NCBI GenBank assembly: GCA_001789445.1
Contig: MFZQ01000014.1
Location: 11,557-75,556 of the forward strand
DNA length: 64,000 nucleotides
Source: Candidatus Roizmanbacteria bacterium RIFCSPHIGHO2_02_FULL_40_13b
GTDB taxonomy: Bacteria > Patescibacteriota > Microgenomatia > UBA1406 > HO2-37-13b
Reading direction: 5' to 3'
Position numbers and translations under genes: made by a program
In this document: piece after piece, positions 1-62,217 of the stretch
Layout of the letters: each line of letters begins with the position of its first letter
Position numbering within the stretch: position 1 is the first letter of the stretch
Notes under the pieces: model-generated
What the model saw: only the letters and a program-made list of their open reading frames with translations
Databases searched by the model: none
What the model was told of the DNA's origin: nothing

Positions 1-38
1 GGTTTGGGGAGGGTACGATTTTTTATTATCTCAAGGAA

Positions 39-9219: not shown

Positions 9220-12177
9220 ATGAACCTTACTCCCACACAAAAAAAAGCTATTTCTAACAATGAAGGTCCGCTTCTTATTATCGCTGGCGCAGGAACAGGA
9301 AAAACAACTGTACTCGTTGAGAAAATAAAATATTTAGTTTCTAAAAACCTAGCAAAACCCGAGGAAATTCTCGCACTAACTTTCACCGAGAAAGCCGCAC
9401 AAGAAATAGAGGAACGCGTAGATCTCGCACTTCCAATGGGGTATTTTCAAATGCAGATAAGCACCTTCCACGCATTTTGCGACAAGATTTTACGCAACGA
9501 GATCATAAACATCGGACTTTCTCCAGCTTACACTCTTCAAACACAAGCCCAGACGATGCTATTCTTGCGCCAAAATTTACCAATCATGAATCTCACCTAT
9601 TTTCGCCCACTTTCAAATCCAAACAAGTTTCTCTATGGACTCTTGCAACATTTTTCCAGGCTTCGGGATGAAGATGTGAGTCCGGAAGAGTATGATCGTT
9701 GGATAAAAAGAGGGCTCGAGAGCTCGTCAGCTGGAGGGCTTGAGGAAAAAGGGAAGTATAAAGAGCTTGCGAAAGCATACAGCGAGTTTCAGAATCTGAA
9801 AATAAAAAATAATGTGTTCGATTTTGCGGATCTCATTTATTACACGTTGAAGTTATTTAGAACACGAAAAAAAATACTTGAGCAATACCAAAATAAGTAT
9901 AAGTACATTCTCGTTGATGAGTTTCAGGATACTAATATTGCACAGTATGCATTGATTAAGCTTTTAGCTCCGCCTAAAAGTAATAAAAGTTTGACTGTTA
10001 TTGGAGACGACAATCAAAGTATTTATAAATTTAGAGGGGCGGCAATTTCAAACATTCTCACGTTTAAAAAAGATTATAAGAAAACAAAAACTGTTGTTCT
10101 AAATGAGAACTTCCGAAGTACACAAAAAATTCTCGATGTTGCATACAAAGTTATACAAAATAATAATCCCGACACGCTCGAATCTAAACTCGGAATTTCA
10201 AAAGAATTAAAAAGTCAACAAGGTGAAGGAGCAACAGATGATATTGAATTAAAACTCAACATGAATGTAGTTCATGAAGCAGACGCTGTAATTTCCAACA
10301 TTGAAAAACGAAAAAAAGAAAATCCAAAACTTACCTTCAATGATTTTGCAATTCTCACTCGAGCAAATGCGCACATCGATCCATTTATTAAAGCGCTTTC
10401 CGCCGCAGGAATCCCATATCAGGTAAACAATCAAGGACTATTATTCAAACAACCAGAGATTAAAGATCTTATTTCATTCCTCTATATATTAAATGATGTG
10501 AATGATTCGACTGCTTTTTTTCGAGTTATTTCCATGGATATTTTTGATATTGATTCCACCGATATTGCCAAACTTGTTTCGTTTGCTCGAAAAGTTGGCG
10601 TGTCGTTTTTGGAAGCAACATCAATTTATGTAAGCTCCGAGCACGAGGATTTTCGAAATGAAAATTTTGAACAATATAAACCGTACTTACCTGTTCTGAA
10701 AATCGGTACAAAAGAAAGACTGTATAAAGTGATTACGCAAATAACCGATGGGATCTCTCGAATTAGTAAAGATAGTGCCGGACAAATTCTCTATTATTTC
10801 CTCGAAAATAGTGGCCTCATGGCAAAAATCTCGGTTATTAAAACAGAAAAGGAAGAAATAATTGCAAAAAATATCTCTCGCTTTTTTAATAAACTGAAAA
10901 GTTTTGAACTTACCCAAGTTGATGCTTCTGTAAACGCGGTTGTTGAGTATTTAACATTATGCATGGAAATGGGGGAGTCGCCCATTACTGAAAATGACGA
11001 TTGGGAACAGATGGATGCGGTCAATATTCTGACTGTCCATGGTTCAAAGGGATTGGAATTTGATACTGTTTTTTTGGTAAATCTCACAAGCGGCAGATTT
11101 CCAACAATTTATAGACGTGAACAAATTCCCCTTCCTGATGGAATTATTAAAGAATTACTTCCAACTGGAGATGCACATATGCAAGAAGAACGACGACTCT
11201 TTTATGTTGGAATAACTCGGGCAAAGAATAAGCTGTTTTTGAGTGCATCATATTTTTATGGAGAAGGGAAGCGTCGTCACAAATTATCTCCCTTTATCGA
11301 TGAAGCACTTGACCCAAAGCTTATTCAAAAAGCAAAAAATGAAACACTTGAGACTTTAGAACAATTACCTCTCTTTGACTTAGCAAAAATAAAAGATGAC
11401 TTTGAAAAAAAGCCTGAAAAAAAATCAAAAGCGCTCTCAAAAACCAAAACACTTTTCTCATACTCACAAATTCAAACGTATCAGATTTGTCCACTTCGAT
11501 ATAAATATCAGTACGTTGTAAAACTACCAGTAACTGCCGGATTTGCCGCCTCATTTGGAGACTCGATGCATAAGGCTCTTCAATATTTTTATACTCTCCA
11601 CTTGAAAGATATGCATCCGACCCTCGATGATTTATACGATCTGTATTATAAGTACTGGGTTCCAGTGGGGTATGGATCTAAACAGTATGAGGAGAAAGTT
11701 AAAAATGAAGGAAAAAGGTTACTTCAAGAATTTTACGATACGTACCATTCAGAAAATATTCAGATTGCCGGACTTGAACAGTGGTTTAAGATTAAGATTA
11801 CAGATTCTATCTTTATTTCAGGGAAAATAGATCGCATTGACTTAATTGAAAATGACTCCATTGAAATTATCGATTATAAAACTGGAAAAGTACCGACCGA
11901 TGCAGAACTCAAAAAAGAAATGCAGCTCGCCCTTTATGCACTTGCGGCAACTGATAAGTCTTTGTATGCAAAAGATCTTTCTCAAATAAAATTGACATAT
12001 TATTACCTGCAAGAAAATAAGAAAATGAGTCTAACTCGAACACAAAAAGATATTGATACAGTTATTGAAACGGTTTCCCAGACTGCTCAAGCTATTCAAT
12101 CCGGAAACTTTGAGCCACGAGTTGGTCCCTGGTGCGGCTTTTGTCCGTTTAAGATCAACTGCGAGGTATGGCAGTAG
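9220..12177 (+). CDS. UvrD/PcrA-family helicase fused to a C-terminal PD-(D/E)xK nuclease with a Cas4/AddB-like Fe-S Cys cluster
   Basis: Walker A AGAGTGKT, DEFQD motif, a C-terminal nuclease motif (IDRIDL..IIDYKTGK), and Cys pattern C...CGFCPFKINC. Confidence 0.8.
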   Translation: MNLTPTQKKAISNNEGPLLIIAGAGTGKTTVLVEKIKYLVSKNLAKPEEILALTFTEKAAQEIEERVDLALPMGYFQMQISTFHAFCDKILRNEIINIGLSPAYTLQTQAQTMLFLRQNLPIMNLTYFRPLSNPNKFLYGLLQHFSRLRDEDVSPEEYDRWIKRGLESSSAGGLEEKGKYKELAKAYSEFQNLKIKNNVFDFADLIYYTLKLFRTRKKILEQYQNKYKYILVDEFQDTNIAQYALIKLLAPPKSNKSLTVIGDDNQSIYKFRGAAISNILTFKKDYKKTKTVVLNENFRSTQKILDVAYKVIQNNNPDTLESKLGISKELKSQQGEGATDDIELKLNMNVVHEADAVISNIEKRKKENPKLTFNDFAILTRANAHIDPFIKALSAAGIPYQVNNQGLLFKQPEIKDLISFLYILNDVNDSTAFFRVISMDIFDIDSTDIAKLVSFARKVGVSFLEATSIYVSSEHEDFRNENFEQYKPYLPVLKIGTKERLYKVITQITDGISRISKDSAGQILYYFLENSGLMAKISVIKTEKEEIIAKNISRFFNKLKSFELTQVDASVNAVVEYLTLCMEMGESPITENDDWEQMDAVNILTVHGSKGLEFDTVFLVNLTSGRFPTIYRREQIPLPDGIIKELLPTGDAHMQEERRLFYVGITRAKNKLFLSASYFYGEGKRRHKLSPFIDEALDPKLIQKAKNETLETLEQLPLFDLAKIKDDFEKKPEKKSKALSKTKTLFSYSQIQTYQICPLRYKYQYVVKLPVTAGFAASFGDSMHKALQYFYTLHLKDMHPTLDDLYDLYYKYWVPVGYGSKQYEEKVKNEGKRLLQEFYDTYHSENIQIAGLEQWFKIKITDSIFISGKIDRIDLIENDSIEIIDYKTGKVPTDAELKKEMQLALYALAATDKSLYAKDLSQIKLTYYYLQENKKMSLTRTQKDIDTVIETVSQTAQAIQSGNFEPRVGPWCGFCPFKINCEVWQ

Positions 12178-53019: not shown

Positions 53020-53646
53020 TCAAGGTTGGGAAATATTTTTTTGAACATTAGAGTTCTTCAAAACTTTGACTGGTTTATCCCCGTCTGCAGGATCAATAAT
53101 GCCTGCAATTTCAAGTGCATCAATGAGACCTGCTGCACGTGCATACCCAATACTAAGCTTTCTTTGTAAAAGTGGTGTAGAAACTTTTCCAAATTCTTGT
53201 GCTAATCTTACCGCATCATCATATACTGGGTCAGTTTTAGGATTAAGAATCTCCCGAGGTTTTGCGCCATCAACCGGACTTACGATTCCTCTTTTTTCCA
53301 TCATATCTACTAACTTTGAAGCTCTGGCATATCCAATATCTAGTTTTCTCTGTAGTAATGAAGTTGATACTTTCCCTGCCTGCATAATTGCAATCACTGC
53401 TTTGGAGTACAGGGGATCAAAATTAACATCAAGATCATCTTCTGTTTGATCTATAAATTGTTCTTCTGTAGTTGGATTAAGTCGGGAAGTAAGAATTTGA
53501 ACTGTTCTATTGAGATCAGAAATTTTCTCCTCATTTTTTTCTTGCAATTCTCGTGAAGTACTTTCGAGCCTCCATACCTCATACAAAAGGTACACTAGTA
53601 ATGCAAATATGAGAAACAAAGTAATTTGGGTAACAGTCATAACCAT
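53020..53646 (-). CDS. Membrane-anchored protein with two tandem FtsK-gamma (KOPS-binding winged-helix) domains and no motor domain
   Basis: N-terminal TM plus coiled coil, then two repeats: DPLYSKAVIAIMQAGKVSTSLLQRKLDIGYARASKLVDMMEKRGIVSPVDGAKPREIL and DPVYDDAVRLAQEFGKVSTPLLQRKLSIGYARAAGLIDALEIAGIIDPADGDKPVKVL. Both match the ftsK C-terminus at 25909-26100. Confidence 0.65.
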   Translation of the reverse strand: MVMTVTQITLFLIFALLVYLLYEVWRLESTSRELQEKNEEKISDLNRTVQILTSRLNPTTEEQFIDQTEDDLDVNFDPLYSKAVIAIMQAGKVSTSLLQRKLDIGYARASKLVDMMEKRGIVSPVDGAKPREILNPKTDPVYDDAVRLAQEFGKVSTPLLQRKLSIGYARAAGLIDALEIAGIIDPADGDKPVKVLKNSNVQKNISQP

Positions 53647-53734: not shown

Positions 53735-56047
53735 TCATAAATAAGCTGCCTTAGCATATAAATCTTTCTGGAACGCAAAAAAAATTGATCGGATATCCTC
53801 TACACTTCCAAGTGATTGTTCGGCATTAGCAATGGCATGATATTTTATATTTAATAATATTGGCAACATTTCTTCATCAAGTTCTTCGACCCCTTTTTCT
53901 TCGTATTTTGACAGCACAAAATCTAAAAATTCTTTTTGTTTTTCATCGAGTCCCTCAAAAATTTTGTCCTTTGATTGTGCTATTCTTTGTGTTCTTGAAA
54001 TCGGCTGTGTTAAGAATGAAATATATGTTAAAACGTCAAATAAATCACTTTGCTCAGCATCGATCAATTTTTGCAATGTTTCTAATTCATCTTTACCATA
54101 ACCTCTTTCAGCAATCTTTTCTAAGAATGCTTTGCGTGTGGTTGGGTTTGACCAAATTTTTCTTAACTCTTCCTCATTCTTAAAAAAGTCTGGCAAGACA
54201 CCGAACATATTATCCATAAACTCATTTACAGAGATTGGCTTTCCATCAGGACCCCAAAATGATGTAGAAATCATATGTTTTATCTCACGTTCTTTACCAT
54301 CTCGTAATTTTATTTTTAATTTTTCCTTTGGTTCCACTTGATCTTTGTCACCAATAACTAAACTCTGATCATTAACTGGCTCCGGATATTTAATTACCTT
54401 TGGCTCGCTCTCTGCTGTATCATCTACGGGTTCCCCGTCCCATTCCGAATCAGAAAAATGATGATAAGCATCAACAAAATCAAAAATTGTAAAATATTCT
54501 TTACCATCAAAAAGTCTCGTCCCACGACCAATAATTTGTTTAAACTCAATTATAGAATTGACTGGCCGCATCAAAACAATATTGCGAATATTACGTGCAT
54601 CAACACCGGTTGAAAGCTTTTGTGATGTGGTTAAAATAGTGGGAATTGTTTTTTCATTATCTTGAAACTCTCGTAAAAATTGCTCACCTCGAAATCCATC
54701 GTTTGCTGTCACTCGCACACAATAATTTGGATCTCTACTGTCTTTCATTTGATTTACCAAATCACGAATTGCCAAAGCGTGGTCTTGTGTTGCACAAAAT
54801 ATAATCGTTTCTTCGTTTTGATTTATTTCGTCCAAGATTATGCGAACTCGTTTAGCTTCGCGTTCTTTAATAAAAATAATTTTATTAAAGTCGGGTTCTT
54901 CATAAATTTTGCCTTCCTCTACTTCTCCTTCAATTATTTGATCATCAGAAACGTACATATAGTCATCAAGAGTCGTTTTGATTCTTTTGACTTTAAATGG
55001 TGTTAAAAACCCATCGTTTACGCCTTCCTTGAGTGAATAAATATAGACTGGTTCGCCAAAATATTTATACGTATCTACGTTATCTTTTCGCTTTGGTGTA
55101 GCTGTTAATCCTAGTTGAACAGCTGGCGAAAAATATTCCAAAATCCCCCGCCAATTACTTTCATCGTTAGCGCCACCTCGATGACATTCGTCGATAATAA
55201 TAAAATCAAAAAAATCGGATGGGTAATCACCAAAATAAGGAGTACCGTTTGAACCACTCATAAACGTTTGGAAGATTGTAAAAAAAATACTTCCGCTCAT
55301 TGGCACAGCGCCTCTTCTTCTAATATCCAATGGATTGATTCGTACAAGCGCGTCTTCGTCAAAAGCAGAAAAAGCATTAAATGCTTGATCAGCTAATATA
55401 TTTCTGTCTGCCAAAAATAAAATTCTTGGCCGACGTGTACTATCACGTTTTAAATTCCATCGGGTCTGAAACAGTTTCCAAGCAATCTGAAAAGCTACGG
55501 CCGTTTTTCCGGTTCCAGTTGCCATAGTCAAAAGAATTCTGTTTTTTTCTTCAGCTACCGCGTTTAAAACATTATTAATGGCAATTTCTTGATAATAGCG
55601 GCTGCCATATTCGCCCTCATTTGGCACACGGGCAAATTTTTCTTTCCATTCATTTTGATCCGAATAGGTCTTGTTCCACAGCTCATCTGGAGTGGGAAAA
55701 TTGACAACTGGTCCTTCATGTCCAGTTTTCATGGACATTTCATAAATCTCACGGCCATTAGATGAATACGTAAAATCAATATGCATTTTTCCGGCATATG
55801 CTTTAGCCTGAGCAACTCCCTCACCACATTCTTGATCTTCAGCTTTAGCTTCAATCACACCAATTTTGTGATTTTTATACACAAAAATATAGTCAGCTAT
55901 CTCTGGCTTGCTCCTAGTTCCACCAATTTGGATTTTACCATCAGTAATCCGAAATTCTCGAAGAACTTTTGATCCCTCGACAACTCCCCACCCGCTCGCT
56001 TTAAGCTTTGGATCAATAAGTTCTGCCCGTGTTTCCGCTTCGTTCAT
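53735..56047 (-). CDS. hsdR: Type I restriction enzyme R subunit HsdR
   Basis: N-terminus MNEAETRAELIDPKLKASGW, Walker A MATGTGKT, DECH box and helicase motifs. 770 aa. Confidence 0.9.
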   Translation of the reverse strand: MNEAETRAELIDPKLKASGWGVVEGSKVLREFRITDGKIQIGGTRSKPEIADYIFVYKNHKIGVIEAKAEDQECGEGVAQAKAYAGKMHIDFTYSSNGREIYEMSMKTGHEGPVVNFPTPDELWNKTYSDQNEWKEKFARVPNEGEYGSRYYQEIAINNVLNAVAEEKNRILLTMATGTGKTAVAFQIAWKLFQTRWNLKRDSTRRPRILFLADRNILADQAFNAFSAFDEDALVRINPLDIRRRGAVPMSGSIFFTIFQTFMSGSNGTPYFGDYPSDFFDFIIIDECHRGGANDESNWRGILEYFSPAVQLGLTATPKRKDNVDTYKYFGEPVYIYSLKEGVNDGFLTPFKVKRIKTTLDDYMYVSDDQIIEGEVEEGKIYEEPDFNKIIFIKEREAKRVRIILDEINQNEETIIFCATQDHALAIRDLVNQMKDSRDPNYCVRVTANDGFRGEQFLREFQDNEKTIPTILTTSQKLSTGVDARNIRNIVLMRPVNSIIEFKQIIGRGTRLFDGKEYFTIFDFVDAYHHFSDSEWDGEPVDDTAESEPKVIKYPEPVNDQSLVIGDKDQVEPKEKLKIKLRDGKEREIKHMISTSFWGPDGKPISVNEFMDNMFGVLPDFFKNEEELRKIWSNPTTRKAFLEKIAERGYGKDELETLQKLIDAEQSDLFDVLTYISFLTQPISRTQRIAQSKDKIFEGLDEKQKEFLDFVLSKYEEKGVEELDEEMLPILLNIKYHAIANAEQSLGSVEDIRSIFFAFQKDLYAKAAYL

Positions 56048-56059
56048 ACAATAATTTTA

Positions 56060-56590
56060 CTATGTAAAGAGCTTTTTAACCTCTTTTGCCACTGAAAAAA
56101 CAAATTCAAGATCTGCTTTTGTGTAATCTTTAATCTCTTTATGTATGCCAATATGCTGTTCGTTTCTCAATTGTCTAACTCTATCGATTTTTTTAAATAA
56201 TTCATCTTCTATGCAGTCTTTAGCTTTCAAAAAATTATTAATATTGCCCAGATTAAGTTTTTCAAATTTTATTTTTTCAGGATTTTTCATGTAATCTCCA
56301 GCTATAATTTGATGACTATCAGTAACTTCGTGTAATACTATTTTATTTGTGAAATCCCATTTGTAGATTACCAAATCTTCTTTTGTATATTTCTTCTCCA
56401 ATAGATATAAAAGCAATGCCTCAATAATTGATGCTGTGTAAATAATTACAGTTTTTCTAAAACTGCTTTTGGCTAAGTCACTATAACTCTTTGATTCTGA
56501 AAATGGAATTAGATCAAGAATATGATTAAAGGCAATATCAAGATTTTCTCTCAAAACTAAGTCGCTAACAAAGGGGAAGTTACTAGCCAT
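56060..56590 (-). CDS. Hypothetical protein inserted between hsdS and hsdR; possible HEPN-like (R-x3-6-H) motif
   Basis: 176 aa, alpha-helical, C-terminal RVRQLRNEQHIG. No confident family. Confidence 0.3.
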   Translation of the reverse strand: MASNFPFVSDLVLRENLDIAFNHILDLIPFSESKSYSDLAKSSFRKTVIIYTASIIEALLLYLLEKKYTKEDLVIYKWDFTNKIVLHEVTDSHQIIAGDYMKNPEKIKFEKLNLGNINNFLKAKDCIEDELFKKIDRVRQLRNEQHIGIHKEIKDYTKADLEFVFSVAKEVKKLFT

Positions 56591-56594
56591 AGTC

Positions 56595-56789
56595 TCAAGG
56601 CTTGAGCATCTCAGAAAGAGATCTGTATCCTTTTTGTTTTAAATAATTACCAAGCTTCATATTTGATTTTACTCCCAAATCAATGCCATATTTTTTTTCA
56701 ATTGTTCCGACTTTTGTATCAAACCTTTTTGGAGTGAACTGACCCTTGTTATTCTTAGCTCGCGAGGTCTTTGTTTGTTTTGTATTCAT
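56595..56789 (-). CDS. Small basic protein (64 aa)
   Basis: Lys-rich with pI well above 10. Lies in the R-M operon between hsdS and the HEPN-like gene. Confidence 0.3.
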   Translation of the reverse strand: MNTKQTKTSRAKNNKGQFTPKRFDTKVGTIEKKYGIDLGVKSNMKLGNYLKQKGYRSLSEMLKP

Positions 56790-56822: not shown

Positions 56823-58001
56823 TCACAATTCTCCGGCAAACGCCTTCCTGAGCACAGATTTCTTCATCTCCTCCAAATCAGCCAATTTTTGTTTATAAAT
56901 AACTTCCAGTTTTTTAGTCTCAGCCGAAAGCGCATCAAGTTTGATAACAATAGATTTTTGTTCGGAAATATTAGGCATTGGAATAACAAAATCTAAAACC
57001 AAATTCATATTCGCTCTTGGCATTCTGGCTCCTGTCCATGTAGCATTTATTTGTTTAACTGTTTCTTTGGAAATAAGCCAATAAAATAAAAAATTTCTGT
57101 AAAGGTTTTTATTAGGCTTGATAGGGAAAATCTCTGTTGAACAATGACCTTCAAAGTTTGGTAATAGCACTTTATTGAGATATGGTCTTAGTCTTCCATA
57201 TAAAACATGCTCACCACTAAAATGGAAAGTATTGCTTTTTACTTTCAATGGATTCAACGAGCCAAGAAATTTACCAGTATTAGATTCTATATCTTCAAGT
57301 CCAACATACGGCAGATTTGTTTTTTTGTACGGAGTTTTATCATATTTACACACCTCATCCAAGGTATTCTCCTCCCAATCTTTCCCCGGATTAGCAAAAA
57401 CACTCTGCAAATATGATTCAAAAAGCTCTTTGGAGTTTTGAAGATTTTTTTCAGTGTTTTCTTTCGCCTTCGCCACTTTCCCAAAAACCTCATCTAGTTT
57501 TTTTACAATTCGTGTTTGCTCACTGAATGATGGCAACGGTGCCTCAATATCTTTATATGCCTGCATATTTAGATTCCTTATACCAGTTGAGTGACTTTGC
57601 ATTCTCTCTGTTATGCCAGATATATAAGAATAAAATAGAAACTTATGTAGGAAATTAAAATCCAACTCACTTTGATCTTTAATTCTGATCACAGATGTAA
57701 AATTACTAAAAGAAAACTCGCCATCTTTTTTATTAAAAATAATGACACGTCCAACTGGCTGTTTCGGTCCACCCCCTGATTTCTCCAGAACAATATCGCC
57801 ATACATCAGTTTACGATTTGCAAATTGCTTTTTCTCAACATCTAAATAAGCTACGTCAGAGTCGTCTAAACGGCCATCTTTAGTAATGTTTGTATTACGA
57901 ATCACACCAATATTTATATATGGTGGTTCTTTTCCTTTCCATAGGCCGTTATAGAAATCACAGGTCTCACTAAGTTTTTTGGTTTGCCAATTATTTTTCA
58001 T
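56823..58001 (-). CDS. hsdS: Type I R-M specificity subunit HsdS
   Basis: Two target-recognition domains separated and followed by conserved coiled regions. 392 aa. Flanked by hsdM and hsdR. Confidence 0.85.
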   Translation of the reverse strand: MKNNWQTKKLSETCDFYNGLWKGKEPPYINIGVIRNTNITKDGRLDDSDVAYLDVEKKQFANRKLMYGDIVLEKSGGGPKQPVGRVIIFNKKDGEFSFSNFTSVIRIKDQSELDFNFLHKFLFYSYISGITERMQSHSTGIRNLNMQAYKDIEAPLPSFSEQTRIVKKLDEVFGKVAKAKENTEKNLQNSKELFESYLQSVFANPGKDWEENTLDEVCKYDKTPYKKTNLPYVGLEDIESNTGKFLGSLNPLKVKSNTFHFSGEHVLYGRLRPYLNKVLLPNFEGHCSTEIFPIKPNKNLYRNFLFYWLISKETVKQINATWTGARMPRANMNLVLDFVIPMPNISEQKSIVIKLDALSAETKKLEVIYKQKLADLEEMKKSVLRKAFAGEL

Positions 58002-59439
58002 AATATGAACGCAACAATTTTATGGAGTCAACTAACTTAGTATTAAAATCTTTTCCTCTGTTCGACGGATAATGAATACAGTTTCTTATGTATGTTGGCA
58101 GAGTTATCTTCTTATCTCCTTTTTTTAATGGGTACTCTTGTTCGAGTTTTTTTACCTGCACAAAATAACCATTATCAAATTCTTTTATCCCAACAGCGTC
58201 TTTATTATTTTCATCGCCATAAACCGCTCTGAGATGATCGTATAATTCGTTATGATAATCAGTGCTAGAAATTTCAAAAACATCGTACGTCACACTTGCA
58301 TATGTTGATGCTTTTTTTTCAAATTGTTTTTTTTCTGTTTTTTCTTTCTTTGTTTCCTTGTTAGGATTTTTAAATATTTTGTAGTTTCTGCTTAAGTCGT
58401 CCTTATCTATCATGTAGTTAGAATGTGTAGCAAAAAAAACAATATTATTTCTTCCACTCCGAGTAATCTTCACCAACTCTTTTAACAAGTCTTCTTGAGC
58501 TTGCGGATGAAGATGGGTTTCTGGTTCATCGAGTAACAAGATTGAGTTAGAGAGTTCGTTGTTTCTATTTTGCGCAGATACTGTTAAAAGAAAAGACACG
58601 AACTGCTTAAATCCATCGCTTCTCTGATCAGCAGTTTTTGCCTTTCCTTTCGTACCGATATCGTGTACATGAAAATTTATTAAACCATCTGATATGTCAA
58701 ATGTTACTTTGATCGGGTGTTTCGGCCAGGCTGTATTAATATGTTCGCTTACTTTATCACTCAGTTCAGTTTTCAACTGTTCGCGCTCGGTAGATTCTTT
58801 AGCTAGGTCTACTCTTGCCTTAATGGCATCCTGCCCAATAATCCCAGCAAGTGCAAAACAATTTTTTAATGGCACTGAGATATCATCTGGTGTACTTGCA
58901 AATTGATCTAAATCTATTGGTTGGGAAATTAAATATCGATCCTCAGCTGTCCAAAAAATAGTTTTATGGGCTTTGTTTAAAATTGATTCCTTTATAAGCT
59001 CTTGAGCTGCAGATTTATTTTCATAATCATCCGTAATATTAATAATTTCTAATTTAATTTCAGACTGGCTTGGATTTGCATAATTAAAACCAATAACAAG
59101 TTTGATGTCTTTTATGTCAACGTCTTTTGTATCTATTGGTGTTTCTTGGGATTTTAAAAGCTCTTTATATTGATTTGCTTCATCCTCTTCTAAAGAGTAT
59201 GAATATTCAATCTCTATTGACTTCAATCTATCTTTAAAATCGTTCTTTAGTGGTAAAGGATTACCTTTTTCATCTTTAAGACCATCTTTTAATGCCAATG
59301 CTTTTAGAATGGTTGACTTGCCCGCCTCATTGACACCGATCAAACCATAAGTAAAAGTATTATCACTAAGAGGTATAATATCAAAAGATATTTCTTCTAT
59401 ACTTCTGTAATTCTTTATTTGTATTGACTTTAATATCAT
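57991..59439 (-). CDS. ABC/SMC-like AAA ATPase (AAA_21/OLD-PrrC-like N-domain) with an uncharacterised C-terminal domain, inserted between hsdM and hsdS
   Basis: Walker A GVNEAGKST, Walker B/D-loop LLLDEPETHLHP, H-loop FFATHS. The ~130 aa C-terminus has RNCIHYPSN and YDHLRAVYGDE. Confidence 0.7.
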   Translation of the reverse strand: MILKSIQIKNYRSIEEISFDIIPLSDNTFTYGLIGVNEAGKSTILKALALKDGLKDEKGNPLPLKNDFKDRLKSIEIEYSYSLEEDEANQYKELLKSQETPIDTKDVDIKDIKLVIGFNYANPSQSEIKLEIINITDDYENKSAAQELIKESILNKAHKTIFWTAEDRYLISQPIDLDQFASTPDDISVPLKNCFALAGIIGQDAIKARVDLAKESTEREQLKTELSDKVSEHINTAWPKHPIKVTFDISDGLINFHVHDIGTKGKAKTADQRSDGFKQFVSFLLTVSAQNRNNELSNSILLLDEPETHLHPQAQEDLLKELVKITRSGRNNIVFFATHSNYMIDKDDLSRNYKIFKNPNKETKKEKTEKKQFEKKASTYASVTYDVFEISSTDYHNELYDHLRAVYGDENNKDAVGIKEFDNGYFVQVKKLEQEYPLKKGDKKITLPTYIRNCIHYPSNRGKDFNTKLVDSIKLLRSYYEK

Positions 59440-59442
59440 ATT

Positions 59443-60894
59443 TTATAAATATTTACTGATGCTATTTAATATCTGTCCACTTTTCTGATCCAAGCTTCTC
59501 ATTTCTTCCAAAATCTCCTTTGGATTGCGTAATGGTGCCGAGCCAATTTTGTTTGGATTTTTTACCGATAAGTCAAATGTTTTTTGATCGATATTTTTAA
59601 CATCAATGCTCCACGAGTTTTCGCTATCTGCTTTTGTTTTTTGTAGTTCGACAAATTCTGCCAAGTCCGCTTCGCTTAATGGGTTGCCCTTACCGAGGTT
59701 GCGGGTGAGGTTGAGTTGGTAAAACCAAACTTTTTTTGTTGATGCGCCTTTTTCAAAAAATAATACAACGGTTTTAACCCCTGCTCCGGCAAATACACCA
59801 CCTGGGAGATCAAGCACTGTGTGTAGATTGCAACTTTCTAGAAGAAGTTTCCGCAGCGAAACAGAGGCATTGTCGGTATTAGAAAGAAACGTATTTTTGA
59901 TAACAATACCAGCCTTACCACCTGCTTTTAGAATTTTGATGAAGTGTTGAAGAAAAAGAAACGCTGTTTCGCCTGTTTTAATTGGGAAGTTTTGTTGAAT
60001 TTCTCGTCCAATTCCAGCGCCGAAAGGTGGATTGGCCAAGACTATGTCATATCGATCTTTTTCTTGAATATCATTGATATTTTCAGCCAATGTATTCATG
60101 TGCCGAATATTTGGCGCTTCAATACCGTGCAAAATCATATTCATAATGCCTATGATATATGCGAGTGATTTTATTTCTTTACCATAGAAAGTTTTGTTTT
60201 GCAGTATTGATATCTGACTTGATGAAAGCTTTGACTGATTTTGAGTGAGGTAGTTAAATGATTCAACCAAAAAGCCTGCACTTCCACACGCTCCATCGTA
60301 AATTGTCTCACTAATTTTCGGCGCAACTACTTTTACAATCGTTTTAATAAGTGGACGTGGTGTGTAATACTCGCCACCATTTCGGCCCGCGTTGCCCATG
60401 TTTTTTATTTTGGCTTCGTAAAGATGTGAAAGTTCGTGTTTCTCTTCATATAGTCGGAAGTGCATGCCGTCAACGATATTTAAAATCTCCCGCAATTTAT
60501 ACCCACTGGAAATTTTATTTTTGAGTTCATGAAAAATTTCGCCAATCTTATATTCAATTGTATTTGGATCTTCCGCTCTAAATTTCTTGAGATATGGAAA
60601 CAGATTATTATTTACAAAATCTTTTAGATCGTCACCATCAAGCGCTTTATTATGATCGAGTTTGCCTTCGTCGTTCTTTGGACACGCCCATATATTCCAC
60701 TGGTATTCCGGAGACAAAATATATTTATATTCCTTCCCAGCTAGTGCCGCTTCCGTTCGTTTTGTTTCCTCCAGACCATCAAGATATTTCAAAAAGAGAA
60801 CCCATGAAGTTTGTTCCACATAATCAAGCTCTGTTCCACAACCGGAATCGGTATGAAGAATATTGTCAATGTTTTTGAATGATTGCTCGAACAT
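59443..60894 (-). CDS. hsdM: Type I R-M N6-adenine DNA methyltransferase HsdM
   Basis: VLANPPFG catalytic motif, an AdoMet-binding motif, and a typical HsdM N-domain. Confidence 0.9.
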   Translation of the reverse strand: MFEQSFKNIDNILHTDSGCGTELDYVEQTSWVLFLKYLDGLEETKRTEAALAGKEYKYILSPEYQWNIWACPKNDEGKLDHNKALDGDDLKDFVNNNLFPYLKKFRAEDPNTIEYKIGEIFHELKNKISSGYKLREILNIVDGMHFRLYEEKHELSHLYEAKIKNMGNAGRNGGEYYTPRPLIKTIVKVVAPKISETIYDGACGSAGFLVESFNYLTQNQSKLSSSQISILQNKTFYGKEIKSLAYIIGIMNMILHGIEAPNIRHMNTLAENINDIQEKDRYDIVLANPPFGAGIGREIQQNFPIKTGETAFLFLQHFIKILKAGGKAGIVIKNTFLSNTDNASVSLRKLLLESCNLHTVLDLPGGVFAGAGVKTVVLFFEKGASTKKVWFYQLNLTRNLGKGNPLSEADLAEFVELQKTKADSENSWSIDVKNIDQKTFDLSVKNPNKIGSAPLRNPKEILEEMRSLDQKSGQILNSISKYL

Positions 60895-60936: not shown

Positions 60937-61191
60937 CTATTTATACACTCCTTGTCTGTGGCCGATTTTGATAACTAAAATAAGCAATTGATGTTGATAA
61001 ATTTGATAGATGATTCGGTAAGGCCACATACGAAAACTATATGATCCTTTATATTCTCCTTCTAATTTTTTACCAATAAGTGGATTTATCGATAATGAAA
61101 TGAATGCGGAAAGAATTCTGTTGTATTCTTTTTTTGGAATTTTTTTAAGTTTTTTTTCGACTGTTGGTTTTAGTTTTACTTGGTATGCCAT
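60937..61191 (-). CDS. Type II toxin, RelE/ParE family
   Basis: 84 aa; YRIIYQI...IGHRQGVYK is RelE-like. Confidence 0.7.
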   Translation of the reverse strand: MAYQVKLKPTVEKKLKKIPKKEYNRILSAFISLSINPLIGKKLEGEYKGSYSFRMWPYRIIYQIYQHQLLILVIKIGHRQGVYK

Positions 61192-61504
61192 ATTTCTTTG
61201 CGACTTTATCAGAAACTAAAAAGCCCTCTTGTTTCAGTAGGGCATCTAGTGTGACCCAATTTTTATACTCTCCTGATTCAAACGCTTTATGTGCTTCTTC
61301 AATATCTTTTGAAAGATCAGGAAATTGTTCCATTACCTCGAATGTCTCTTGCCATGATTCAAACTCTTCAGCTGATATAAGTACCGCTTTGGGCCGACCT
61401 TTTTCAGTAAAAGTATAGTGCACTCCCGGCTGTTGTACCGCTTCGGCAATATCAAAAATATTCTTTCGCGCTTCTGTTATTGGAATAGTTGTTTTTGTGT
61501 TCAT
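61145..61504 (-). CDS. Type II antitoxin, Phd/YefM family
   Basis: IPITEARKNIFDIAE...PKAVLISAEEFESWQETFEVM. Its 3' end overlaps the toxin gene by 47 nt. Confidence 0.6.
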   Translation of the reverse strand: MNTKTTIPITEARKNIFDIAEAVQQPGVHYTFTEKGRPKAVLISAEEFESWQETFEVMEQFPDLSKDIEEAHKAFESGEYKNWVTLDALLKQEGFLVSDKVAKKYGIPSKTKTNSRKKT

Positions 61505-61551: not shown

Positions 61552-62217
61552 TTATATTTGTCCTTTTTCTTTAAATGAAACGTATTTCGATGAACTCACA
61601 ATAATATGATCTGCCATTTCTATTCCCAGTATTTTCCCAGCTTCAATAATTCGTTTTGTAACAAGTTCATCATCATGTGAAGGTTCGGGATCACCTGATG
61701 GATGATTGTGGACGATAATAATACTTGCCGCATTATGCTTTAATGCCGGCGCAAATACATCGCGCGGGTGAACAATACTAGCATTAAGCGTACCGATTGA
61801 AATTGTTTCCGTCGTGATAAGTTGATTGCGCGCATCAAGGTAAAGTGCTACAAAATGTTCTTTCTTTTTATGACGAATGTCGCCTACTACTTTAATAACA
61901 TCGCCAGGTGTTGTAATTTTAATTGACGGATCATTTTTAAAAATACGCTTAGCGATTTCAAGAGATGCGGAAATAATAGATGCACGTGAAGTTCCAACAC
62001 CTTTTAATTTAGCGATTTCTTTTGGGTCCATTGCGGCTATATCCATAAAAGACAACGTTTTTAGAATTCGCTTAGCAACGCTTATTACATTTTGACCTTT
62101 ATAACCAGTGCGAAGTAATATTGCGAGCAGTTCAAAATCATGCAATGCACGGGGTCCTTTTTCAAAGAGTTTTTCACGAGGTTGACTTGAATGGGGCAGG
62201 TCCTTGATGCTAGCCAT
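61552..62217 (-). CDS. radC: RadC-like JAB/MPN domain protein (UPF0758)
   Basis: An HhH-like N-domain and the JAMM motif HNHPSGDPEPS. Confidence 0.8.
   Translation of the reverse strand: MASIKDLPHSSQPREKLFEKGPRALHDFELLAILLRTGYKGQNVISVAKRILKTLSFMDIAAMDPKEIAKLKGVGTSRASIISASLEIAKRIFKNDPSIKITTPGDVIKVVGDIRHKKKEHFVALYLDARNQLITTETISIGTLNASIVHPRDVFAPALKHNAASIIIVHNHPSGDPEPSHDDELVTKRIIEAGKILGIEMADHIIVSSSKYVSFKEKGQI

Follow-up and report, generated by a model that had tools for sequence, protein, structure and literature searches.

Introduction

Nucleases coupled to ATP-binding cassette (ABC) ATPases, among them OLD, Gabija, PARIS, Septu, retron effectors, PrrC and RloC, form a major theme of anti-phage defence. 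In PrrC, encoded at the prr locus of Escherichia coli together with the EcoprrI type I restriction-modification (R-M) system, an N-terminal ABC ATPase and a C-terminal nuclease of the HEPN superfamily (~110-130 residues) are joined in one polypeptide. The prrC gene lies within the type I R-M operon, is co-expressed with the hsd genes and provides a second-line abortive defence: the ABC domain regulates the HEPN nuclease, as it also does in RloC, and the R-M partner keeps PrrC inactive as long as no phage anti-restriction factor is present (PMC3710099; 10.1101/2024.01.29.577857). RloC likewise consists of an ABC ATPase with a C-terminal HEPN domain and is mostly solitary, occasionally R-M linked and presumably self-regulated by its own ATPase (PMC3458546; PMC3710099). 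PrrC and RloC are suicide anticodon nucleases, whose target is the anticodon loop of tRNA. HEPN domains that carry an Rx4-6H motif act as metal-independent endoribonucleases (PMC3710099). Cleavage by such enzymes leaves 2',3'-cyclic phosphate ends. Here we describe a gene of similar layout in a 64,000-nucleotide stretch of DNA (the window; positions 11,557 to 75,556 of contig MFZQ01000014.1 from Candidatus Roizmanbacteria bacterium RIFCSPHIGHO2_02_FULL_40_13b). The gene (57991..59439, minus strand; all positions are those of the window) is nested in a type I R-M operon and encodes a 482-residue protein in which an ABC ATPase precedes a C-terminal domain that very probably belongs to the HEPN superfamily.

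No concept is overturned by this finding, as the architecture and the R-M association were already predicted in 2013. What is new is that a known toxin superfamily gains a divergent member absent from the catalogues, and the unexpected detail is a coupled H404R/H457Y swap in the HEPN site of the window protein and some of its close relatives.

Results

A HEPN-like domain behind an intact ABC ATPase

Judged by its more than 880 full-length homologs (best E ~1e-228), the 482-residue open reading frame (ORF) is a real gene. The full-length AlphaFold2 model has a pLDDT (predicted local distance difference test) of 93.8 and a predicted template modelling (pTM) score of 0.90, and it contains no long coiled coil.

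The ABC ATPase head comprises residues 1-372 (58324..59439, minus strand), is of the AAA_15/AAA_21 type with two inserts and matches the corresponding Pfam models from residue 1 to about 372 (AAA_15, 3.9e-22; AAA_21, 3.2e-20). An alignment of 120 close homologs revealed that its catalytic positions are all invariant or nearly so. These include the Walker A motif GVNEAGKST (residues 35-43, 59311..59337, minus strand; G35, N37, E38, G40 and K41 invariant), the ABC signature-like RSDGF (residues 273-277, 58609..58623, minus strand; R273, S274 and F277 invariant), the Walker B and D-loop segment ILLLDEPETHLHP (residues 300-312, 58504..58542, minus strand; D304, E305, P306, E307, H309, H311 and P312 invariant) and the H-loop ATHS (residues 337-340, 58420..58431, minus strand; invariant). 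By sequence and structure, the nearest relatives of the ATPase are OLD, Gabija GajA, PARIS AriA and Septu/retron PtuA. The top sequence match in the PDB is the Thermus scotoductus OLD nuclease (6p74), which covers the ATPase core only, and the PADLOC models matched (Old, AriA, GajA, AbiLi, NsnB, mad3 and PtuA) likewise cover ATPase portions only.

The C-terminal domain (residues 374-482, 57994..58320, minus strand) was folded on its own with a pLDDT of 88.5. In full-length numbering, the prediction begins with three helices (380-386, 393-410 and 418-429), continues with a beta-hairpin (436-445) and ends with two more helices (447-456 and 465-481). The modelled domain thus has the size and fold that mark HEPN domains, i.e. 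about 100-120 residues arranged as a four-helix up-down bundle of two alpha-hairpins, and its nearest structural matches are classical MNT-associated HEPNs. HEPN domains are further defined by an Rx4-6H motif in which a characteristic polar residue (N, D or H) follows the arginine (Anantharaman et al. 2013, PMC3710099). The corresponding region here is R452-N-C-I-H456-Y457 (58069..58086, minus strand), for which the family consensus is R-[N/H]-x-I-x-H, an Rx4H. Across 142 divergent representatives, each drawn from a separate cluster at 50% identity, all 142 have R452, position 453 carries N in 113 sequences and H in 28, position 455 carries I in 133, and the residue at 457 is His in 137 and Tyr in the other five; at the level of the family, then, an Rx4-6H motif with a polar residue directly after the arginine is present. 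The modelled motif closes helix 447-456 and is followed by a loop (457-464) and the last helix, while the beta-hairpin is inserted immediately before helix 447-456, a placement of motif and insert that agrees with the one described for HEPN domains in section 7 of PMC3710099.

Direct sequence comparison was less informative. No curated HEPN-clan model in Pfam matched the window's domain even at E<=10, so that a significant sequence match to a HEPN family was not obtained. When 46 divergent sequences of the domain were compared with Pfam one at a time, all matches remained below threshold: Ribonuc_2-5A, the KEN RNase domain (0.0015), DUF3644 (two members, best 0.015), HEPN_RiboL-PSP (0.05) and HEPN_Apea (0.53). 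DUF3644 is itself a HEPN family (PMC3710099; 10.1101/2024.01.29.577857). In both members that were traced, the Rx4H lies inside the matched stretch (R77..H82 within residues 38-89, and R85..H90 within 29-93). Four lines of support, no single one of which is decisive, thus make it very probable that the C-terminal domain is a HEPN domain.

Conservation within the C-terminal region is concentrated in two main stretches, DYHNELY and TLPTYIRNCIH[H/Y]PxN. The first of these (residues 394-400, 58240..58260, minus strand) opens the first long helix and contains H396 and E398, which are candidate auxiliary active-site residues: H396 is kept in 120/120 close homologs and in 136/142 divergent ones, and E398 in 110/142 divergent ones. 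An Ex3[KR] motif beginning at E398 was also considered; it was dropped as evidence because K or R occupies position 402 in 74 of the 120 close homologs and is not found family-wide.

Existing libraries pass over this domain. Pfam gave no match to residues ~330-482 or ~377-482 at a threshold as lax as E<=10, the matches from NCBIfam, PADLOC and PHROGs all stop by residue ~415 (those from PADLOC and NCBIfam at ~390-415) with none over the C-terminal domain, and PDB sequence searches with the single sequence, the family profile or the domain profile matched the ATPase and otherwise returned noise. Neither the family nor its C-terminal domain has a dedicated model in Pfam, NCBIfam, PADLOC or PHROGs, and our literature search found no paper on this ATPase-HEPN family. 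A profile of the domain alone, run against 1.84 billion representative proteins, nevertheless retrieved 923 clusters with E<=1e-3, of which 357 reach E<=1e-10. As judged from these searches, the single-gene ABC-ATPase-HEPN family is widespread, with more than 900 clusters at 50% identity and no Pfam, NCBIfam or PADLOC model, and it is common in the candidate phyla radiation (CPR)/Patescibacteria, Bacteroidota and Proteobacteria. The domain is C-terminal to an AAA_15/AAA_21 ATPase in every architecture inspected; short matches to its profile proved to be gene fragments, and one match of 1798 residues is a cysteine-repeat artefact. As it is found only behind this type of ATPase, the domain is a dedicated partner of the ATPase and not a mobile module.

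A first-pass annotation of the window had placed an ORF with Walker A, Walker B/D-loop and H-loop motifs at 57991..59439 within an R-M operon, and the ORF, its motifs and its place within an R-M operon were all borne out, with the signature RSDGF as an addition. It had also argued that the C-terminal region is not a Toprim domain, with which the model agrees in being all-helical but for one beta-hairpin and the searches in giving no Toprim match. Its proposal that the domain is novel was not upheld, since fold and motif point to a divergent member of the HEPN superfamily. The ordinary OLD architecture with a Toprim domain was rejected on the grounds that library matches end before residue ~415 and that the C-terminal model is helical.

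A coupled substitution in the HEPN site

In the window protein the canonical histidine at R+5 is replaced by Tyr457, while a histidine (His456) is present at R+4 and the arginine and asparagine of the motif are kept. Tyr457 is shared by 46 of the 120 close homologs, all of which retain H456. When the Y457 and H457 groups were compared over the whole 482-residue protein, only positions 457 and 404 separated them: position 404 (codon 58228..58230, minus strand) is R in 46/46 Y457 proteins, and members of the H457 group have H, Q, E or N there. The same pairing is seen in the divergent set, where R404 occurs in 5/5 Y457 proteins and in just one H457 protein. The N-terminal identity between the two groups (0.57) is close to that within them (0.58-0.60). 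On the basis of the paired change at 404 and 457 and of the equal N-terminal identity between and within groups, the coupled H404R/H457Y change suggests an active site that was remodelled under selection rather than one that decayed. Whether a copy is embedded in an R-M locus did not correlate with the Tyr variant, as both variants occur inside such loci and outside them.

The type I restriction-modification operon and the context of relatives

The ATPase-HEPN gene lies between hsdM and hsdS, and the complete type I R-M system is encoded on the same strand. The methyltransferase gene hsdM (59443..60894, minus strand; Pfam N6_Mtase, 2.6e-63, and HsdM_N) precedes it, the specificity subunit gene hsdS (56823..58001, minus strand; Pfam Methylase_S in two stretches) follows it, and the last gene of the operon is hsdR for the restriction/translocase subunit (53735..56047, minus strand; Pfam ResIII, 1.3e-37, Helicase_C and EcoEI_R_C, 1.2e-25, the last of which we take to be typical of the EcoAI/EcoEI, or type IB, group). 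Reading of the junctions revealed 3 nucleotides between the hsdM stop codon and the ATG of the ATPase gene, and an hsdS ATG located 11 nucleotides within the 3' end of the ATPase gene. From this short gap and from the start of hsdS inside the ATPase gene, it follows that hsdM, the ATPase gene and hsdS are translationally coupled.

A scan of one genome per species yielded 37 loci that encode a full-length relative, and 36 of these loci are distinct. The order hsdM-X-hsdS-hsdR, in which X is the ATPase-HEPN gene, was recovered by tblastn with the window's neighbours in L004-L008, L012, L013, L015, L016, L028 and L059. Clustering of the ORFs within 5 kb placed HsdM and HsdS at 13/36 loci and HsdR at 11/36, and no gene family besides these three occurred in more than 4 of the 36 loci, so that a conserved effector partner was not found within this distance. 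The copies are thus R-M-embedded at about a third of the loci and solitary at the others. In four loci (L011, L030, L032 and L034) the adjoining HsdM homolog shares just 24-29% identity with that of the window, and clustering picked out homologs of HsdS and HsdR there as well. These divergent type I neighbours argue that the gene joined several type I lineages and was not carried along with one. Conversely, the homologs of Mucilaginibacter ginkgonis and Maritalea mobilis are lone genes amid housekeeping genes, and no full-length relative was found in PLSDB plasmids or IMG/VR viral contigs. Type I R-M is therefore the sole recurrent associate of the family, and the association is facultative. 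On account of the solitary copies and of the lack of a recurrent partner gene, we regard the protein as self-sufficient. The first-pass annotation had guessed at an effector or sensor domain coupled to restriction, and the guess of a restriction-coupled effector is reasonable, although not as a new domain.

A proposed mechanism and its alternatives

By analogy with PrrC and RloC, we consider it fairly probable that the protein is a single-polypeptide defence or toxin module in which an ABC ATPase regulates a HEPN RNase as a latent toxin. The N-terminal ABC ATPase, which is SMC/Rad50/OLD-like, would act as sensor and switch, and the C-terminal HEPN domain as a metal-independent endoribonuclease effector that the ATPase head, as in those two systems, would hold silent in the resting state. 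Binding of ATP brings about dimerisation of ABC heads, and HEPN RNases generally work as dimers. ATP-dependent dimerisation or a trigger could join two HEPN domains into an active RNase, which might then cleave tRNA (the most plausible substrate) or another cellular RNA and so lead to abortive infection. Embedded copies may be triggered when the type I R-M complex expressed with them is lost or inhibited, and solitary ones by a DNA or phage cue. Since the window gene is co-translated with hsdM and hsdS, it probably provides a second line of defence behind restriction.

A more specific version of this proposal, which we advance only tentatively, is that within a widespread family invisible to the libraries the window's subclade has rebuilt its HEPN site from (H404, H457) to (R404, Y457), maybe with altered chemistry or substrate, while its position between hsdM and hsdS, from which it would guard type I restriction, stayed the same. 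If so, the site might belong to a Tyr/Arg-assisted RNase with its histidine at R+4, or the domain might now bind or sense RNA in place of cutting it.

The alternative that survives best, although we regard it as unlikely, is that the HEPN-like domain is non-catalytic and is there to bind RNA or nucleotides, to dimerise or to dock with the R-M complex, in which case the ATPase would be a sensor or regulator of restriction and not a toxin. The presence of Tyr in place of the canonical catalytic His, in the window protein and in more than a third of its close homologs, weighs against the latent-toxin proposal here, as does the finding that motif-less HEPN domains serve as binding domains (PMC3710099). 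The HEPN domains of MtlR and of nucleotidyltransferase fusions are of this motif-less kind. The translational coupling of the gene to hsdM and hsdS would also suit a docked regulator. However, R452 never varies and is still followed by a polar residue, every member of the Tyr subclade has H456 and H396, the full Rx4H is present in nearly all divergent members of the family, and the exchange of His for Tyr is tied to the one specific change H404R, as would be expected of remodelling under selection and not of decay. Moreover, the HEPN families AbiV and AF0298 have lost the motif histidine yet hold an alternative conserved histidine instead (PMC3710099), and by analogy H456 and the invariant H396 are candidates for this role in the Tyr variant.

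A second alternative, that the protein supplies the ATPase of a two-component system, for instance PARIS (AriA/AriB), AbiL (AbiLi/AbiLii, i.e. RloA/RloB), Septu (PtuA/PtuB) or HEC-01..03 and acts through a separate effector, has its attraction in the identity of the best PADLOC matches (Old, AriA, GajA, AbiLi and PtuA) and in two extra small genes of the operon that lie between hsdS and hsdR, orf64 (56595..56789, minus strand) and orf176 (56060..56590, minus strand; 176 residues). The family of orf176 has 127 homologs, mostly in CPR bacteria, and no Pfam domain; its invariant residues R139, R142, N143 and H146 form an R-x2-R-N-x2-H motif, and there is a weak match to DUF4145, which is of HEPN type. 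We nevertheless consider this alternative very improbable. The PADLOC matches are confined to the ATPase part, nothing recurs beside the 36 family members except hsdM, hsdS and hsdR, and neither orf64 nor orf176 had a tblastn match in any of 83 homolog loci. In other genomes, the orf176 homologs are always preceded by a 57-residue ORF that is 54% identical to orf64, and this pair of a ~57-64-residue and a ~180-residue protein is inserted elsewhere between rpsJ and rplC, within the ribosomal-protein operon (L084:6818-7543; L085-L087). As it occurs elsewhere without the ATPase, the pair is an independent mobile two-gene cassette, and a role for orf64/orf176 in the ATPase-HEPN system, to whose family they have no link, was rejected. 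Possibly the two encode a toxin and its antitoxin, the toxin being HEPN-like. Two separate passengers are thus embedded in the restriction operon.

That we are dealing with an ordinary nuclease of the OLD family, or with a genuine orthologue of PrrC, whose C terminus is missed by the libraries is hardly tenable: homologs do bear the names 'predicted ATP-dependent endonuclease of OLD family' or 'ATP-dependent nuclease', the OLD nuclease 6p74 is the top PDB sequence match and the R-M-embedded position recalls prrC, but an OLD nuclease is refuted by the fold of the C-terminal domain, which is helical, about 110 residues long and without a Toprim match, and PrrC is contradicted both by the position of the gene between hsdM and hsdS and by AAA_13 and Abi_C, which we take to be the Pfam models that cover PrrC/RloC and which gave no match even at lax thresholds (E<=0.1 for the whole protein, E<=10 for the C-terminal part), with no PrrC-type NCBIfam model among the matches.

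Neighbours of the operon

Directly upstream of hsdM, two overlapping ORFs of 119 and 84 residues (60937..61504, minus strand) resemble, by eye, a Phd/YefM-type antitoxin and a RelE/ParE-type toxin. Beyond them lies a 221-residue ORF (61552..62217, minus strand) that looks RadC-like, with a JAB/MPN-type motif HNHPSG; radC often adjoins mobile or defence DNA. The toxin-antitoxin-like pair, the RadC-like ORF and the R-M operon together suggest that the stretch at 53.7-62.2 kb is a small island of defence or mobile DNA.

On the other side of the operon, a 208-residue ORF (53020..53646, minus strand) displays, again by eye, an N-terminal hydrophobic segment and two tandem FtsK gamma-like (winged-helix, KOPS-binding) repeats, VSTSLLQRKLDIGYARASKLVDMMEKRGIV and VSTPLLQRKLSIGYARAAGLIDALEIAGII, an unusual small architecture.

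Discussion

To the known ABC-ATPase-coupled nucleases the family adds a compact and very widespread form, which has a classical HEPN domain where others have a Toprim or HNH effector and which is often nested between hsdM and hsdS. Its members are annotated merely as "AAA family ATPase" or "OLD family endonuclease", and recognition of the family should improve the annotation of defence systems. It could also offer a second, independent system besides PrrC in which to study the coupling of a restriction complex to an RNase toxin, and the natural pair of (H404, H457) and (R404, Y457) sites is a ready probe of HEPN catalysis.

With OLD, GajA, AriA and PtuA the protein shares the logic of an ABC ATPase sensor joined to a nuclease effector, and with the OLD family the AAA_15/AAA_21 type of ATPase. 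Members of this group, namely PARIS, retron-Eco7 PtuAB and P2 Old, have recently been described as targeting tRNA (PMC12409363; PMC12673091; 10.64898/2026.07.10.737580). Whereas OLD, Gabija, PARIS and Septu use Toprim or HNH nucleases, either fused or as a separate polypeptide, a fused HEPN domain stands in the effector's place here. In the lack of a C-terminal Toprim nuclease domain with its acidic metal-binding residues the protein differs from an OLD nuclease, and in the lack of a conserved partner from a two-gene system. The family motif, as R-N-x-I-H-H, also resembles the R-N-K-x-H-H of the KEN domain of Ire1/RNase L, in which the second histidine is catalytic. KEN, however, is a eukaryotic, circularly permuted HEPN on a kinase (PMC3710099), and the Ribonuc_2-5A match across the motif, from one member and below threshold, is no evidence of specific kinship.

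Among the ABC-HEPN families described by Anantharaman et al. 2013 (PMC3710099), ERFG_01251 and APECO1_4465 occur in CRISPR-linked (Neisseria, Kingella) or prophage contexts, neither of which was seen here, and ERFG_01251 is also fused to HEPN/Toprim-NTD1. Compared by description only, the present family fits these accounts, especially that of ERFG_01251, whose HEPN domain is a classical one near the MNT-associated group.

The closest parallels remain PrrC and RloC. RloC carries a Rad50-like region with a zinc hook (PMC3458546), whereas the protein here has 482 residues and belongs to another sequence family. The R-M partner differs from that of PrrC as well, the HsdR here having an EcoEI_R_C domain and PrrI being called type Ic (PMC3710099). 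No sequence relationship to PrrC was detected beyond generic ABC motifs, and the ATPase is of the AAA_15/AAA_21 type, like those of OLD, Septu and Gabija, while the HEPN domain comes nearest in structure to HEPNs of the classical MNT-associated kind. The gene here is flanked by hsdM and hsdS, whereas prrC presumably sits between hsdS and hsdR, and the R-M linkage of the present family is facultative (HsdM/HsdS within 5 kb at 13 of 36 loci), as in RloC, whereas prrC is almost always embedded. On our best reading of these comparisons, the family appears PrrC/RloC-like in architecture and context but constitutes a different sequence family, in which an OLD/Septu-type ATPase is joined to a classical HEPN domain.

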